The position numbers and the translations under genes are program-made. The notes beneath the pieces are model-generated. The model was given only the letters and a program-made list of their open reading frames with translations, had not been told where the DNA came from and searched no databases. From an uncultured Dehalococcoidia bacterium (lineage in GTDB: Bacteria; Chloroflexota; Dehalococcoidia; Lucifugimonadales; CAZEDC01), in assembly GCA_964510985.1 (NCBI GenBank), contig CAZEDC010000030.1, positions 1,920-65,919 of the forward strand: a stretch of DNA of 64,000 nt, given 5' to 3'. Below, piece after piece: positions 46,453 through 52,638 of the stretch (its first letter is position 1; the number at the start of each line of letters is the position of its first letter).

Positions 46453-46540
46453 GGAGGGGTGGCCGAGTGGCTTAAGGCGCCGGTCTTGAAAACCGGAATC
46501 CCGAAAGGGAACGTGGGTTCGAATCCCACCCCCTCCGCCA
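46453..46540 (+). tRNA. tRNA-Ser(UGA)
   Basis: GGAGGGG/CCCCTCC acceptor stem, CCGGT-CTTGAAA-ACCGG anticodon arm, long variable arm, GTTCGAATC, encoded CCA. Confidence 0.97.
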
Positions 46541-46677: not shown

Positions 46678-47835
46678 ATGAAAATCCACGAATACCAGGC
46701 TAAAGAGATTCTTGCCCGGTACGGCGTGCCCATACCAAGGGGAGGCGTGGCCTCCACGCCCCAGGAGGCGGCCAGCATCGCCGGCGACCTGGGCGGCCGT
46801 GTGGTCGTCAAGGTACAGGTCCACGCCGGGGGCCGTGGTAAGGCCGGCGGCATCAAGCTGGTAGAGTCCGCCGAGGAGGCCGAGAGAGCGGCCTTCTCCT
46901 TCCTCGGCTCGAATCTCGTTACGATTCAGACCGGCCCTGAGGGGATACCCGTACGCCGCGTGCTGGTGGAGGAGGCGGTGGACGTGGCGAACGAGCTATA
47001 CCTGGGCCTGGTTATCGACGGCGCGGCCGGGGGAGTCGTCGTCATCGCCAGCGAGGCGGGCGGCATGGAGATCGAGGAGGTGGCGGCCAGCACTCCCGAA
47101 AAAATACTGCGGGCCCAGGTGGACCCTGTACTGGGACTCCAGCCGTATCAGGGGCGCAAGCTGGCCTACGGGCTAAACGTCGAGCCCGGTCTGGTCAGGC
47201 CCGTCGCCGGGATGATCGACAGTCTCTACAGGGCCTTCGTGGCCCACGACTGTTCGCTGGTCGAGGTGAACCCCCTGGTGATAACCGGGGACGGCAAGGT
47301 CCTTGCCGTGGACGCCAAGCTGAACGTGGACGACGACGCGCTGTTCAGGCAGTCCGAAATCCAGGGCCTGCACGACCCTGAGCAGGAAGACGGTCGCGAG
47401 GTCGAGGCCCGGAAGTACGACATAAGCTACGTAAAGCTGGACGGCGATGTGGGCTGCATGGTCAACGGCGCCGGCCTGGCCATGGCCACAATGGATGTCA
47501 TAGGTGACGCCGGGGCCGCACCCGCTAACTTCCTGGACATCGGCGGCGGCGCCGACGAGGAGAAGGTGGCCCAGGCGCTGACGATCATCCTCTCGGACCC
47601 CAGCGTCAAACGGGTGCTGGTCAACATATTCGGCGGCATCCTGCGATGCGACATAGCCGCCCGCGGCCTGCTGATGGGCTCCGAGGCGATGCCCAAAGCG
47701 GCCCGTCCCATGGTGGTACGGATGCTGGGCACCAACGCCGAAGAGGGGCGCAAACTGCTGTCCGATTCCAGCCTGGACGTGATGCTGGTGGACAACCTGG
47801 GCCAGGCCGCCGAGGCGTTGCAAACCACCGGCTAA
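46678..47835 (+). CDS. sucC: Succinyl-CoA synthetase beta subunit
   Basis: [47 protein letters not shown]. Confidence 0.97.
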
Positions 47836-47870
47836 GGCCAGCCCCGATCAGGAAAAATGAGAGCGAGCGA

Positions 47871-48749
47871 ATGAGCATTCTGGTGAACGAAAAAACCCGG
47901 CTGTTGGTGCAGGGAATCACCGGCCGCGAGGGCAGCTTTCACGCAAAGCGATGCAAGGAGTACGGCACCAACCTGGTGGCGGGCGTTACGCCTGGCCGGG
48001 GCGGAGTGCAGTTCGACGACGGCGTACCTGTGTTCAACACCGTGGAGCAGGCGGTCGCCGAGACCGGGGCCAACACATCGGCGATCTTCGTGCCGCCGGC
48101 CTTCGCCGCCGACGCTATAGCCGAGGCGGTGGACGCCGGTATTGCAACCGTCGCGTGCATCACCGAGGGCATCCCGGTAATGGACACAATCCGTGTGGTC
48201 CGGTACGTCAGAGACAAACCAGTGACCCTCATCGGCCCCAACTGTCCCGGCGTCATCTCTCCGGGCGCCCGGTGCAAGGTGGGCATCATGCCGGGAAACA
48301 TCCACCTGCCGGGCAGGACTGGCGTCGTGTCCAGAAGCGGCACCCTAACCTACGAGGCCGTGGGCCAACTAACCGAGTTGGGCATCGGGCAGTCAACTTG
48401 TGTGGGTATCGGCGGCGATACGGTCAACGGCTCGTCCTTCGTGGACATCCTGGGGATGTTCCTGGAGGACCCCGACACGGACGGAGTCGTGCTGATCGGG
48501 GAGATAGGCGGTACCAGGGAGCAGGAGGCCGCCGAGTATATAAAGAGCGAGTTCACCAAGCCGGTGGTGGCACTGGTCGTCGGACAGAGCGCGCCGCCGG
48601 GCAAGCGGATGGGGCACGCCGGAGCCATCATAACCGGAACTGCGGCCCGCGCCGACGAGAAGGTCAAGGCACTGTCGGCCGCGGGCGTCGCCATCGCCCC
48701 ATCTCCCGCCAGGATAGGCGCGACCGTGCGGGAGGTGATGGGGGGATAA
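47871..48749 (+). CDS. sucD: Succinyl-CoA synthetase alpha subunit
   Basis: [27 protein letters not shown]. Confidence 0.97.
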
Positions 48750-48855
48750 TCCGTCCGGAGTAGGGTTTGCCCGAAAACTTAACCTAACCTTATCCCTCCG
48801 GTGGCGGAAGGGAGTTCGTCCGGAGCGAGGAATCTCCCTTCTAAGTCTGAAAAAC

Positions 48856-48889
48856 ATAAGGGGCTGGCCCCCTCGGGCCAGCCCCTTAT
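48856..48889. terminator. Bidirectional hairpin terminator
   Basis: ATAAGGGGCTGGCCC-CCTC-GGGCCAGCCCCTTAT, a perfect 15-bp stem between convergent genes. Confidence 0.8.
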
Positions 48890-48912
48890 TATTGGCCAGT
48901 GTTCGCAGGGTT

Positions 48913-49641
48913 CTACTTGAGGATGTCCCACAGGCGCGTGGACTGCCAGCGCAGCACCCGCACGATTGTCGCCAGCGCCAGACCGATGCCTGTCAACAGC
49001 AGGGCCATGCCCGCGAACTTGAAGGGCTCCAGCCACAGCTTGACCGCGTTGATGGTACCGAGATCGGCCAGCAGGCCGCTCGTCGAAGGGTTGAGCTGAG
49101 TGGCGATGGAGTGGTTCCAGTAGTCGTAGGTCAGGGTGGCCAGGACGATGCCGATGATCACCGATGCGACCAGGAGCATCATGCCCATCATCATGAACAT
49201 GGGGAACAGCTGGGCGGTCATGGGAGGTTTGATGATCTTCACGTCAACGCCCAGGGCCTCCTGGACCCTGCCGCCGCCGGTCCTGAGCGCGCCCAGAATG
49301 GTGGCTAGCAGGAAGGTCACTCCGCCCAGAATCATCCCCAGGCCCAGGAATTTGAGCGTGGGGAGCCACACCTTGGTGGACTCGATGAAGGCCTTCTTGG
49401 TGGCCAGATCGGAGCCTGTACCCGCCGCCTCGCGAACGGACTTGGAGAAGCTGAAGTAGTCGGCGGCGGCGCTGGAGGCGAACAGACCGATGATAAAGGC
49501 CACCACCACGATCATGAACCCCATGCCGATAAAGGGCATCCACATCTTGCCGGCCATGGCCTGCATGCCGGTCACCTTTACCGGCAACTTGTCGCTGGTA
49601 AACAGAACCTCTGAATTGACTATCGTGGCATTAGCTGCCAT
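48913..49641 (-). CDS. Uncharacterised 4-TM membrane protein with internal duplication
   Basis: Two copies of TM-DY(F/W)..S-loop-I...K.WL...KF.G...L.G....LATI...LR; RBS AAGGAGG. Confidence 0.85.
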   Translation of the reverse strand: MAANATIVNSEVLFTSDKLPVKVTGMQAMAGKMWMPFIGMGFMIVVVAFIIGLFASSAAADYFSFSKSVREAAGTGSDLATKKAFIESTKVWLPTLKFLGLGMILGGVTFLLATILGALRTGGGRVQEALGVDVKIIKPPMTAQLFPMFMMMGMMLLVASVIIGIVLATLTYDYWNHSIATQLNPSTSGLLADLGTINAVKLWLEPFKFAGMALLLTGIGLALATIVRVLRWQSTRLWDILK

Positions 49642-49690
49642 TTTCGATTCCCTCCTTGGATTGCGTTTTCACTTTAGTTAACAGTCCGGG

Positions 49691-50083
49691 TTAGGCTTCC
49701 GACGGGTTGTCCCGGAGCGCCTTGAGCGCCGGCAGTGCGGCGGCCATGGTGTTGCCCCGGAGCCTGACGTTTCTCAGGATGTTGGCGAAGGCGACGCCGA
49801 AGCCCAACAGGAAGGTAGCCAGCCCAAGGAATGCGAAGGGCAATACCCAGTCCTTGACGGCCTCGATGCTGCCCAACTGGGACAGGATTCCGGTCTCGTC
49901 CGCGTCCCGGACCGCCTTGCTGTTGGTGAAGTAGTCGCCTGCCATCACGGCCAGGACTATCCACGTTACCGCGGATATCATGACAAACATCAGGCCCGCG
50001 ACCCAGAGCGCCCCGGCTATTTTTATGTGCGGCGCCGGTCTCTGGGCCTGTGCTCTCAGCTCATCGTTGCTTGGAATACTCAC
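49691..50083 (-). CDS. Uncharacterised 2-TM membrane protein, single copy of the same repeat
   Basis: GDYFTNSKAVRDA...IEAVKDWVLPFAFLG...ANILRNVR; GTG start after AAGGAGGT. Confidence 0.85.
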   Translation of the reverse strand: MSIPSNDELRAQAQRPAPHIKIAGALWVAGLMFVMISAVTWIVLAVMAGDYFTNSKAVRDADETGILSQLGSIEAVKDWVLPFAFLGLATFLLGFGVAFANILRNVRLRGNTMAAALPALKALRDNPSEA

Positions 50084-50218
50084 TTTTACCTCCTTAAACA
50101 ATTGGGATCACGGTGCGGGCCGCCTTAATATCTGGTTGGCGTCATGTCTCACCTCGTTATACGTTTTTTACAAAGGGCTCCTGATCGTTCGATACCTTCC
50201 ATGGTCGTGGCTGGTTCA

Positions 50219-50689
50219 TCAGTTAAAGGCCGTGTAGAATGCGCCCACCAGGACCCCGAATAAGATGTGGAGCATGAGGAAGCCCATCGCGGTCAGAGGG
50301 GGATAGCTAAGTGCAAAAACGCCCGGAGCGTCTATCTCCCTGTGTCTGATAGCGGGGTGCATCATCGGCAGCATGCCCAGGCCCATGCCCGAGACCATCC
50401 AGTGCACGAGCCCGAAGAGGATTCCCCAGGCGGCCAGCGAATCCTCTACGTCGAAGGCAACAAAAACGGCCACGTGTATCAGGCCGAACACGATGCTCAT
50501 CACAGCGTGTATCATCGCCCCGGCCATGTAGGCCATCTTGCCTTTTCTAAACATCATGGTCCCCAGCATGAGGAACAGGTTCATCCTCATCTGTCGGGGC
50601 ATCATGGCGATTCCCATATAGAGGAGCGCGCTCATGAGCGCTCCCCCTAATAGTCCCGCCAGAACGGCGGCTCCACCGTCAAAACTCAT
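50219..50689 (-). CDS. Met/His-rich 4-TM membrane protein
   Basis: 156 aa with 21 Met and 6 His by hand count; GAMIH, GLVHW and LHILFG within TM segments; RBS AGGAGG. Confidence 0.85.
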   Translation of the reverse strand: MSFDGGAAVLAGLLGGALMSALLYMGIAMMPRQMRMNLFLMLGTMMFRKGKMAYMAGAMIHAVMSIVFGLIHVAVFVAFDVEDSLAAWGILFGLVHWMVSGMGLGMLPMMHPAIRHREIDAPGVFALSYPPLTAMGFLMLHILFGVLVGAFYTAFN

Positions 50690-50769
50690 TCCGGTTCCCT
50701 CCTGACAATCGCTCCGGTCTACCGGTGCGCTGTCATTAAATGTGATGTGGTCGAGTTGCCCGGCGGTTC

Positions 50770-50785
50770 TGTGGTCTTGCATACA
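50770..50785. promoter_or_regulatory. Candidate Crp/Fnr-family operator in the divergent spacer
   Basis: TGTG-GTCTTGCA-TACA resembles TGTG-N8-CACA. Confidence 0.35.
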
Positions 50786-50853
50786 AAACATGCGCAACCT
50801 CAACCGGACATGGCACCGTATATCCATTTCCGTCGTCCGGCATCTAAGGGGAT

Positions 50854-51120
50854 GTGAAAGCATCATTGGGCGTGCTGAAGGTATTCATATCCGCGGGGTG
50901 CCGCGGTTGCAGGCGAGCCCTGGAACTGGTGGAGTTGGTGCGGAGACAGAGACCGAGCCTGAGCATCCAGGTGATCGATCTGTCTAAAGTGCCGGAGGCG
51001 GGGCTTGGCCTGGTATTCGCGGTGCCGACGTACGTTTACGAAAACAGGCCGATCTTCCTGGGCAACCCCAGCAGACAGGAACTCGAGGCCTGGCTGAACA
51101 CGCTTGGCGCGGAGGTGTGA
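50854..51120 (+). CDS. Small thioredoxin-fold protein (CxxC)
   Basis: VFISAGCRGC, VIDL, AVPT (cis-Pro position), FLGNP. Confidence 0.75.
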   Translation: MKASLGVLKVFISAGCRGCRRALELVELVRRQRPSLSIQVIDLSKVPEAGLGLVFAVPTYVYENRPIFLGNPSRQELEAWLNTLGAEV

Positions 51121-51123
51121 GTT

Positions 51124-51882
51124 ATGTGGCCGCTGCTGGATAAGGGCAGTAGCCGGTCGAAGGCGAACGTAGGCCCCGCACTGGAGCCCTCTCCGTTCGA
51201 GGCCGGCAAGGTGGAACTCCTGAGCGCCATGGACATCTTTCAGGACCTGGCCGAGCCTGAGATCGAGGCGCTGATGAGCGACGCCCCCATGCTTACCGCA
51301 CGCAAGGGCACCAGGTTTTACGGCGCCGAAGACGGCCCCGAGGTGCTGTTCCTGCTTAAGTCCGGCCGGGTCGAACTCTACCGCGAGTCACCGGACGGCA
51401 AGAAGCTCACGCTGGCCGTCGTGGAGCGGGGTACGTTCTTCGGGGAGATGTCGTTGGTGGGCCAGCGTCTGGTGGGGACGTGCGCGGTCGCCCTCGAGGA
51501 CAGCGTCATCTGCGCCCTGAGCCGCCACGACGTGCAATCCCTGACACTGGAGCACCCGGCGGTGGCATTTCGGATCATCGAGGTCATGGGCCGCCGGTTT
51601 CAGCAGGCCCGGAACGCCTTCCAGGAGATGGCCTTCAACGACCTGACGGGACGAGTCGCCGGCCTGCTGCTGCGGCTTGCCGACGATGGGACCGACGTTG
51701 TGGAAGGATATTCGCACCGAGACCTGGCAGCCATGTTAGGATGCCTCCGCGAAAGCCTCACGGTGGCCCTGGACCGGTTCAAGGAGAGCGACGCCCTGGC
51801 CATCGGCCGCAAGCGGATCGAGATAATCGACCGCGCCCAGCTCGAGAGGGTGGTCGGCCAGAGGACCGGTCTATCGGGCTGA
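51124..51882 (+). CDS. Crp/Fnr family transcriptional regulator
   Basis: LKSGRV, FFGEMSL, RVAGLLL, HRDLAAMLGCLRESLT HTH. Confidence 0.92.
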   Translation: MWPLLDKGSSRSKANVGPALEPSPFEAGKVELLSAMDIFQDLAEPEIEALMSDAPMLTARKGTRFYGAEDGPEVLFLLKSGRVELYRESPDGKKLTLAVVERGTFFGEMSLVGQRLVGTCAVALEDSVICALSRHDVQSLTLEHPAVAFRIIEVMGRRFQQARNAFQEMAFNDLTGRVAGLLLRLADDGTDVVEGYSHRDLAAMLGCLRESLTVALDRFKESDALAIGRKRIEIIDRAQLERVVGQRTGLSG

Positions 51883-52638
51883 CGGGCTCCTGTGCCATTG
51901 GGGGTTCCAGGGCGCGGCCAATCCGGCGACGTTCGAACCCTGCCCCAGCTCGTCCAGAGTACGCGACTCGGTCTCCCAGCCGAAGGCCTCCCCGAAATGA
52001 CGGTCCAGCACGGGGATGACCTGCCGGACCTCGATCGGACTCCCCAACTCGGCGGCCCCCAACTCGGCGGCCATGGAGGTCACGGGGGCGTCGGGCATCC
52101 CGCAGGGGACGATGTGGTCGAAGTAGGAAAGGTCCGGGTTGACGTTCAGCGCGAAGCCGTGCATGGTTACACCCCGGCTGACCTTGACGCCGATGGCGGT
52201 TATCTTGGCGTCGCCGACCCAGACGCCTGTCGGCCTGTCGTCGCTCTCGCCTCTGATGCCGAACTCCGCCAACGTGGATATGAGGGACCGCTCCAGGGTC
52301 CGTACGTATGCGAGCGGCCCACCCCCCCAGGCGCGAAGGTTGACGATGGGGTAGCCGACGAGCTGGCCGGGGCCGTGGTAGGTGACCTCGCCTCCCCGGT
52401 CTATGTGGTGGACCTGAACCCCCAGTTCCGGGAGCTCTTCGGGATTTGCCAGGATGTCCGACGCCACGCCCCTGCGGCCAAGGGTGTAGACGTGGGGATG
52501 CTCCAGCAGCAGGAGCAGGTTGGGCAGCCGCCCGCCGGCCACCTCTCGATGGAGTTTTTTCTGTTGCTCCCAGGAGGCTGAGTACTCGACCAGACCCTGG
52601 GATATTACGACGCAGTTGTCTGGCATTTCGTCCTTCAT
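51871..52638 (-). CDS. lipB: Lipoyl(octanoyl) transferase
   Basis: LEHPHVYTLG, RGGEVTYHGPGQLVGYP, KITAIG, HGFALN, IVPCG. Confidence 0.96.
   Translation of the reverse strand: MKDEMPDNCVVISQGLVEYSASWEQQKKLHREVAGGRLPNLLLLLEHPHVYTLGRRGVASDILANPEELPELGVQVHHIDRGGEVTYHGPGQLVGYPIVNLRAWGGGPLAYVRTLERSLISTLAEFGIRGESDDRPTGVWVGDAKITAIGVKVSRGVTMHGFALNVNPDLSYFDHIVPCGMPDAPVTSMAAELGAAELGSPIEVRQVIPVLDRHFGEAFGWETESRTLDELGQGSNVAGLAAPWNPQWHRSPSAR

Follow-up and report, generated by a model that had tools for sequence, protein, structure and literature searches.

A candidate thiol-responsive Crp regulon for modular membrane hairpin proteins in an uncultured Dehalococcoidia bacterium

What might three small membrane proteins be doing beside a regulator and a thioredoxin that appear to be their own? 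The question is raised by five genes in a 64,000-nucleotide stretch of contig CAZEDC010000030.1 (hereafter the window), from an uncultured Dehalococcoidia bacterium. M242, M136 and MH156, on the minus strand, encode membrane proteins; Trx88 and Crp252, divergent from them on the plus strand, encode a mini-thioredoxin and a Crp/Fnr-family regulator. Based on sequence comparisons we propose, with a probability of about one in two, that these genes form a local divergent regulon in which a thiol-sensing Crp protein acts on a membrane assembly of hairpin proteins. The trx88-crp252 and mh156-m136-m242 operons would share a 164-base-pair (bp) control region with a dedicated 20-bp operator, at which Crp252 would control the membrane genes and, probably, its own transcription unit too. 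The co-translated Trx88 would keep the cysteines of Crp252 in the reduced state, helped in relatives by a glutaredoxin-thioredoxin reductase (Grx-TrxR) fusion. The output would be a hetero-oligomer of M136 (one hairpin) and M242 (two hairpins) in the membrane, with MH156 as a facultative third component, and the whole may have a role in envelope redox or in oxidant defence.

The argument begins with the control region between MH156 and Trx88 (50690-50853, 164 bp). The first-pass annotation of this DNA had pointed to a TGTG-N8-TACA site in this spacer; the site is present at 50770-50785 and proves to be part of a longer, imperfect 20-bp box, TGTATGCAAGACCACAGAAC (50766-50785, minus strand), which constitutes a candidate Crp operator. 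Across eight aligned spacers the box has the consensus TGTATGCAAGACyACmGAAC, with 14 invariant positions and the dyad form TGTA-N8-(C/T)AC(A/C). A regular expression for the strict CRP palindrome found the site in the window and in no orthologous spacer, because the conserved unit is the longer, imperfect box. When the loci L032-L162 (1.4 Mb) were scanned for the box with up to 2 mismatches, 16 matches were obtained, vs 4 for a reversed-pattern control. At 0-1 mismatch the box stands upstream of the membrane genes, in constant orientation, in L046, L047, L049, L051, L052, L053, L055, L057, L058 and L060. Nine of these ten are all the loci that encode a Crp with 54% or more identity to Crp252; the remaining one, L053, is a contig that ends just upstream of the box. 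Among the other 30 of the 39 loci related to the window's, the box precedes the membrane genes only in L053 and, with 2 mismatches, in L050, while L072 has a 2-mismatch match some 4.7 kb off. The window's genome (2.67 Mb, 92% complete) contains the box once. Such a pattern is what one expects of an operator that serves this locus alone, with the Crp protein as the obvious candidate to bind it.

Could the five genes be chance neighbours, the box serving some other factor or being a promoter element? A sigma-70 scan of the region was uninformative and the Crp protein is only a candidate for binding the box, both of which leave room for this explanation. We nevertheless consider it highly improbable: the presence of the box tracks that of the Crp gene (all nine close-Crp loci vs few of the other 30), and the Crp linkage is seen in two phyla although there are only about two Crp genes per genome. 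The spacer alignment shows a second short conserved block (50741-50749, minus strand; CACATC..A in the window, CAtC..A in the alignment), which lies 18 nucleotides beyond the box on the side of the membrane operon, with C107, T109, C110 and A113 of the aligned spacer invariant; it may be a promoter element. A search of 48600-52000 against Rfam returned 0 matches, which leaves the idea of a riboswitch in this spacer unsupported. In L058 the box occurs a second time, with 1 mismatch (L058:1-1190, minus strand), about 90 nucleotides upstream of a gene for a Met-rich lipoprotein without a Pfam family. In L108, a relative of this lipoprotein, 32% identical, is encoded at a distance of 3 kb from the hairpin genes; used as a query, the lipoprotein had no match in the window's genome (92% complete).

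The conservation of the arrangement was followed in two sets of loci, all of them from metagenome-assembled genomes: 39 loci retrieved with an M242 profile, which constitute a related Chloroflexota set, and 77 loci, of which most belong to Acidimicrobiia and other Actinomycetota and some to Chloroflexota. The first set includes a Crp gene in 11 loci, Trx88 in 6, MH156 in 8, a UbiE/MenG-type methyltransferase directly upstream in 8 and sucD in 5; the second, a Crp-family gene in 21, DUF3179 in 12 and the Grx-TrxR fusion in 4. We also clustered, free of labels, the open reading frames (ORFs) within 5 kb on either side of the hairpin genes of loci L046-L162. Once the hairpin genes and an antisense-ORF artefact were set aside, the largest cluster was Crp (22 loci), followed by the Grx-TrxR fusion (12), an AMP-binding enzyme (10; the family was assigned from the same locus), PPK2 (9) and, with seven loci each, MH156, DUF3179 and the UbiE-type methyltransferase. 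The neighbour counts cover 5 to 7 kb on either side and, since many contigs are short, they are lower bounds. In the window's genome, 2.67 Mb in size, no more than two genes score above the HTH_Crp_2 cut-off, so that a Crp gene would be adjacent by chance well under 1% of the time, and the linkage recurs in two phyla. The association with a Crp regulator, announced in the first-pass annotation, is thus conserved far beyond chance (11/39 and 21/77 loci). The self-contained five-gene module of that annotation is not a fixed unit: only the M136-M242 pair is constant, whereas Crp (11/39), Trx88 (6/39) and MH156 (8/39) are frequent but facultative.

The same proximity could be read in the opposite direction, the hairpins being the input of the Crp protein: as a sensor or anchor in the membrane, they would hold the regulator back or set it free. 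In several loci of the Actinomycetota type (L086, L118, L128, L155, L149 and L152, for example) no more than a few hundred bases separate the Crp gene from the hairpin genes, often on the same strand, and the strongest conservation of the hairpin proteins is found not in the cores of the transmembrane (TM) segments but in the stretches that follow each hairpin (LR-GGG-VQ-ALG). Yet a box upstream of the membrane genes in fixed orientation is the arrangement of a target promoter, and the hairpin pair is often found without a nearby Crp gene, which makes us strongly doubt this direction of control.

If Crp252 does control the membrane operon from the box, to what would it respond? Crp252 (51124-51882, plus strand) begins 3 nucleotides past the Trx88 stop codon and belongs to the Crp/Fnr family, with cNMP_binding (PF00027, 7.6e-17) and HTH_Crp_2 (PF13545, 4.6e-13) domains both above the Pfam cut-off. 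It matches 55 solved Crp-family chains at E <= 1e-5, the nearest being Thermus Crp, GlxR and mycobacterial Crp. In Crps that bind cyclic AMP (cAMP), an Arg-Ser/Thr pair contacts the cAMP phosphate. Crp252 has Val-Gly where Thermus Crp has R-S and GlxR has R-T, and none of the aligned Crp252 orthologues has an Arg at this column. Judged from these residues, Crp252 is not a cAMP receptor. Consistent with this, a cAMP-responsive CRP proper is rejected by the NCBIfam CRP equivalog as well (61.8 bits vs a cut-off of 266). FNR, an oxygen sensor that carries its 4Fe-4S cluster on an N-terminal cysteine cluster, is rejected too (NCBIfam Fnr, 27.8 bits vs 228; no FNR-type Cys cluster), and so is NtcA (43.1 bits vs 244.95), whose operator consensus is TGTA-N8-TACA and whose likeness to this system is confined to the form of that operator. 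In PADLOC, Crp252 gave weak matches (2e-5 to 9e-4) over residues 48-167, which comprise the cNMP domain only; a Pycsar-type anti-phage effector can be dismissed, as Crp252 has a helix-turn-helix domain, no cyclase is nearby and the membrane proteins have no PADLOC match. Readings of the reductive-dehalogenase (CprK) type and of the NnrR/NnrS type were also discarded, as no RdhA, NnrS or denitrification genes were seen in the neighbourhoods. Crp252 has just three cysteines, at 120, 130 and 207. Cys130 is retained even in distant relatives and Cys207 stands ahead of the recognition helix (GCLRES). Most likely, Crp252 reports the thiol-redox state.

The genes that accompany Crp252 and its relatives are in keeping with such a signal. 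Trx88 (50854-51120, plus strand) is a mini-thioredoxin with a CxxC motif (CRGC at residues 16-19) that scores 28.8 bits against the Pfam family Thioredoxin_3 (Mj0307-like; cut-off 24.8); among solved structures, 1fo5 and 1nho, small thioredoxins of archaea, are related to it (E 6e-4 to 8e-4). The more specific MJ0307 thioredoxin equivalog (TIGR00411) is rejected, at 25.5 bits vs a cut-off of 92.75. The CxxC motif is retained in 7 of 8 aligned orthologues. In L049 the operon order is Grx-TrxR fusion, Trx, Crp, and L055 has the same order plus inserted transposase-like ORFs, two of which lie in or beside the Grx-TrxR gene, upstream of trx-crp (L055:4742-5966, minus strand). A distant locus of genome G068 (L042), whose Crp is 31% identical, has a Thioredoxin_3 gene after Crp, then genes for a radical-SAM protein, a methyltransferase and Grx-TrxR; a classical thioredoxin comes after the hairpin genes. 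In G296 (L035), the flank 6-8 kb from the hairpin cluster on one side contains Trx_3, a CcdA-type DsbD_TM protein and an AhpC/TSA-type redoxin, and the other flank contains Crp, DUF1684, a second Trx_3-like gene and DUF3179. In G262, a single strand carries an MH156-like gene, two unknown genes, DUF3179, two small genes, a five-hairpin protein and a DsrE-like gene. One of the two unknown genes is CcdA-like (L044:10675-11682), as recognised by eye only, and gave no Pfam match; the translation of the stretch between it and the MH156-like gene (L044:11859-12869) contains X residues. The suggestion of the first-pass annotation that the regulon responds to redox conditions is reasonable, because relatives carry thioredoxin, thioredoxin reductase, CcdA-type DsbD_TM and DUF3179.

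The DUF3179 motif is itself a CxxC (CPLC), and the copy in L068 has an in-frame TGA at the position of the first Cys (UxxC); a table in PMC9312934 includes DUF3179 among the selenoprotein families, with the motif UxxC/T. A single in-frame TGA interrupts the DUF3179 paralogues at G000:C106:41274-42167, G000:C117:9-452 and L068:1992-2900, which are candidate selenocysteine forms. Radical-SAM genes with an HMPTM-type N-terminal zinc ribbon were also seen near distant hairpin loci, at L042:2574-4031 (beside the methyltransferase) and L044:13561-15120.

What, then, would such a regulator control? M242 (48913-49641, minus strand; 242 residues; ribosome-binding site AAGGAGGG) has four TM-like segments arranged as two 2-TM hairpin repeats, and its halves align to each other at E 1e-15, indicating an internal duplication. 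M136 (49691-50083, minus strand) is a single 2-TM hairpin that aligns to these halves at E 7e-14 and 5e-19, so that the repeat relationship noticed in the first-pass annotation is confirmed; a hidden Markov model (HMM) of the hairpin unit finds two matches in M242. The open frame of M136 extends to a TTG at 50101, and an AAGGAGG motif 5 nucleotides ahead of the GTG at 50083 favours a product of 130 residues, a version that is also present in the 90% protein cluster of M136. The hairpin proteins contain no Cys and one His only; they are unable to do thiol chemistry themselves, for lack of these residues.

M136 and M242 form a family without an entry in any of the libraries searched. In Pfam, M242 has no family at E <= 1 and the only matches of M136 are at E 0.15-0.19; NCBIfam yielded nothing relevant for either protein, a 23-sequence M242 profile had 0 matches to PDB sequences at E up to 10, and PADLOC and PHROGs gave no match for the membrane proteins. 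At E <= 0.001, M242 finds 414 homologues, of which the best 120 are 69-100% identical, come from Chloroflexi or SAR202 records and are all named 'hypothetical protein'. The family is small: when 1.84 billion cluster representatives were searched exhaustively with a profile, just 486 matched at E <= 0.001. When 20 diverse or distant members were scanned, none had a Pfam family across the hairpin region, and the three Pfam matches obtained (PDZ_2, OCD_Mu_crystall and DUF898) were outside the hairpin core or below cut-off. The ESM Atlas model of M242 (predicted template-modelling score, pTM, 0.79) has unnamed Actinomycetota proteins as its nearest structural neighbours (template-modelling score 0.73-0.75) and no named family above 0.58. 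Literature searches on DUF3179, on DUF6789 and on thioredoxin reductase and membrane proteins in SAR202 turned up no account of the module. The first-pass annotation had recognised no known family for any of the three membrane genes; this holds for M242 and M136 in the library searches and only in part for MH156 (see below).

The hairpin unit is packaged in several ways. With the unit HMM run on all loci, a one-hairpin gene followed by a two-hairpin gene was found in 31/39 loci. Other loci read 2+1+2 (L050), 1+2+2 (L075 and G296, L035) or 1+3 (L079), or are split 1+1+1 (L053, L062), interrupted (L063) or truncated (L082, L084). Single chains of 600-616 residues with five hairpins occur in two genomes of another family (L044, L045), and P0205 (584 residues) has five unit-HMM matches. 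The proteins of about 319 residues of the Actinomycetota type are M136-M242 fusions with the order kept: the M136 profile aligns to residues 20-116, the first hairpin including its tail motif (96.8% probability, E 3e-10), and the M242 profile to residues 132-318 (100% probability, E 2.9e-44). A second M242-like stretch follows the first in 66/77 loci, in most of the loci scored with the unit HMM as separate adjacent frames. Because this HMM undercounts the divergent first hairpin of the Actinomycetota proteins, its '2+2' and '1+2' scores for them are not taken at face value; the 3+2 reading of this form relies on the M136 and M242 profile alignments and on L140. When a single chain of five hairpins was compared with the 3+2 form, the probability that the two are collinear came to 57%. 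A search for longer, fused homologues, word-based and therefore weak as evidence, found none at E <= 0.001.

The adjacency of M136 and M242, and their fusion, are strong evidence that the two proteins act as one assembly. The single complex of three membrane proteins imagined in the first-pass annotation finds support, through the gene fusion, for this pair only. That the hairpins so often add up to five suggests a double use of M242 in the 1+2 form. It is tempting to go further and to speculate that M136 and M242 found a new superfamily of modular 2-TM hairpins, five of which (10 TM segments) would make up the functional unit as a ring or bundle, encoded as 5, 3+2, 1+2+2, 2+1+2 or, in the marine SAR202-type form, 1+2 with M242 used twice. 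Abundant Chloroflexota and Acidimicrobiia of the ocean would thus possess a new kind of membrane channel or scaffold, connected with a thiol-sensing Crp of its own and with a pathway from thioredoxin through CcdA to the (seleno)protein DUF3179. We put forward this extended picture as a tentative and rather doubtful one.

The third membrane protein, MH156 (50219-50689, minus strand; 156 residues), is Met/His-rich, with about four TM segments. Its ORF reaches 50866, and the start was set at the ATG at 50689 based on the ribosome-binding site (GGAGGG) and on all homologues. Met makes up 13.5% of its residues, and of its 6 His, five (H61, H72, H96, H111 and H141) are invariant across 23 homologues; many near-invariant Met sit within hydrophobic segments. 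As a component of the proposed regulon, MH156 could bind metal or heme via the five invariant His. It is probably a fringe relative of DUF6789/DUF1440, a weak affiliation: MH156 itself scores 16.8 bits against DUF1440 (Pfam cut-off 34.7), 2 of 23 relatives match DUF6789 (best E 1.4e-6), 7 of 23 match DUF1440 weakly, and its ESM Atlas neighbours carry families of the DUF6789/DUF1440 group. A search of PDB sequences with MH156 gave 0 matches. That MH156 might be a diverged pair of hairpin units is ruled out (hhalign probability 0.2%).

The copper, heme or gas role suggested in the first-pass annotation has the Met/His content of MH156 as its sole basis. This composition raises the question of whether the locus is instead a module for a copper-type metal, MH156 being a Met/His-lined Cu(I) path or a heme subunit, the hairpins its partners and the thioredoxin a means to keep metal-binding thiols reduced. 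Thiol-reducing pathways of the CcdA/redoxin kind serve copper insertion elsewhere, and L035 carries a CcdA-type DsbD_TM and a redoxin; the second box of L058 ahead of the Met-rich lipoprotein gene, and the relative of that gene near the hairpins of L108, point the same way as the Met and His content. Several facts argue otherwise and make such a module unlikely in our opinion: MH156 is present in only 8/39 loci, no copper ATPase, chaperone, CopC/D, multicopper oxidase or copper regulator was seen among the neighbour clusters, the regulator is of the Crp type and not CsoR, CueR or CopY, and the lipoprotein, used as a query, is unmatched in the window's genome (92% complete).

The paralogous pairs open yet another possibility, namely that the hairpin pair is a housekeeping membrane scaffold linked to quinones or respiration, to which Crp and thioredoxin were added as a lineage-specific regulatory device. 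A UbiE/MenG methyltransferase (Ubie_methyltran matches, E down to 4e-64) lies directly upstream of the hairpin genes on the same strand in L032, L034, L038 and L040, and in 8/39 loci overall. G187 and G032 hold both kinds of pair, the Crp/MH156-type and the UbiE-type. This linkage is confined, however, to seven loci of near-identical layout, whose UbiE proteins are 69-100% identical, plus one further metagenome-assembled genome. Moreover, the family is found in only 19/301 genomes of the class sample, a distribution unsuited to a core respiratory part, and we find a general scaffold quite improbable. The four pairs downstream of the methyltransferase are at L032:8358-10510, L034:8134-10235, L038:2388-4813 and L040:3816-6028.

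A thiol-sensing Crp acting on a hairpin assembly has its own difficulties, and the following observations weigh against it. One Trx88 orthologue carries CxxR instead of CxxC, and Trx is absent in three of the nine close-Crp loci (L046, L051 and L057). Cys207 of Crp252 is retained among close orthologues only, and Cys120 varies among orthologues. No Crp gene is present in the available DNA of 28/39 and 56/77 loci, many of whose contigs are short, and a paralogous hairpin pair is tied to UbiE/MenG in 8/39 loci without Crp. The Grx-TrxR gene of the window's genome stands elsewhere, among housekeeping genes, and may be a general reductase; the approximately eight DUF3179 matches in the same genome caution against over-reading the redox context. 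The presumed output proteins, M136 and M242, lack Cys and have a single His. Finally, a sigma-70 consensus scan of the control region found no promoter-like site.

At its borders the locus is well delimited. It is enclosed by sucC/sucD (46678-48749, plus strand) and lipB (51871-52638, minus strand), which the Pfam scan identified together with E2 and E1-beta genes farther out. A hairpin terminator, bidirectional, with a 15-pair stem (10 GC pairs) and a T-run, occupies 48856-48889 between the convergent sucD and M242 genes. The first-pass annotation had described a five-gene module between sucD and lipB with this terminator and the divergent layout, and all the elements are found at or near the places it gave them, two gene starts having been corrected. 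The GC fraction is 0.56-0.59 across 49500-51000, vs 0.62-0.67 in the surroundings. The exact locus is contained in seawater metagenomes of 13 studies, and a look for RNA data sets that contain it found none. The convergent frames of lipB and Crp252 share 12 nucleotides at their 3' ends (51871-51882), and a tRNA-Ser gene (anticodon TGA) is found just upstream of sucC (46453-46540, plus strand).

The analysis turns an anonymous pair of genes into a testable system: M136 and M242 as partners, a single 20-bp candidate operator, a regulator without cAMP ligands and a candidate thiol-redox signal. The hairpin family is well kept (70% identity or more) across many marine Chloroflexota, yet its recorded names are 'hypothetical protein'. 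If the redox link is true, a membrane output would be added to the small set of thiol-controlled Crp/Fnr regulators, and neighbours such as the DUF3179 selenoproteins would receive a first functional handle. If the five-hairpin reading is true, it would reveal a new route to a 10-TM membrane protein from a 2-TM module.

Several known systems resemble parts of this one. The small 4-TM proteins of the DUF6789, DUF1440 (YagU) and DUF2938 families are like MH156 in length and TM count, the five invariant His being a trait that sets the MH156 subgroup apart. To our knowledge none of these families has a known function; YagU has been linked to acid resistance. MscL and CorA are homo-oligomeric ring channels made of a 2-TM building block, with a unit count of five. 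For the hairpins the analogy is architectural only and the ring is hypothetical: there is no sequence relation (M242 profile against PDB, 0 matches at E up to 10), and the hairpins come 1, 2, 3 or 5 per chain. The pathways that lead from TrxR through Trx and CcdA/DsbD to extracytoplasmic CxxC proteins (Scs/TlpA type) have counterparts in the Grx-TrxR, Thioredoxin_3, DsbD_TM, redoxin and DUF3179 genes of the relatives' loci, whereas the module of the window has the small thioredoxin only, and Cys-less hairpins are not electron carriers of this kind. For the regulator, the closest parallels are CprK of Desulfitobacterium and PrfA of Listeria, although the box consensus differs from both the dehalobox and the PrfA box. 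Both have the cNMP_binding + HTH_Crp_2 fold of Crp252, which lacks the cAMP ligands, and they share with it a Cys by the recognition helix and a connection to thioredoxin. According to the account given in PMC5487381, a Cys11-Cys200 disulfide inactivates CprK, reduced TrxA binds PrfA, and PrfA is under thiol and thioredoxin control. Unlike CprK and PrfA, Crp252 is preceded by a dedicated thioredoxin gene that ends 3 nucleotides ahead of it, and its putative target is a set of small membrane proteins.

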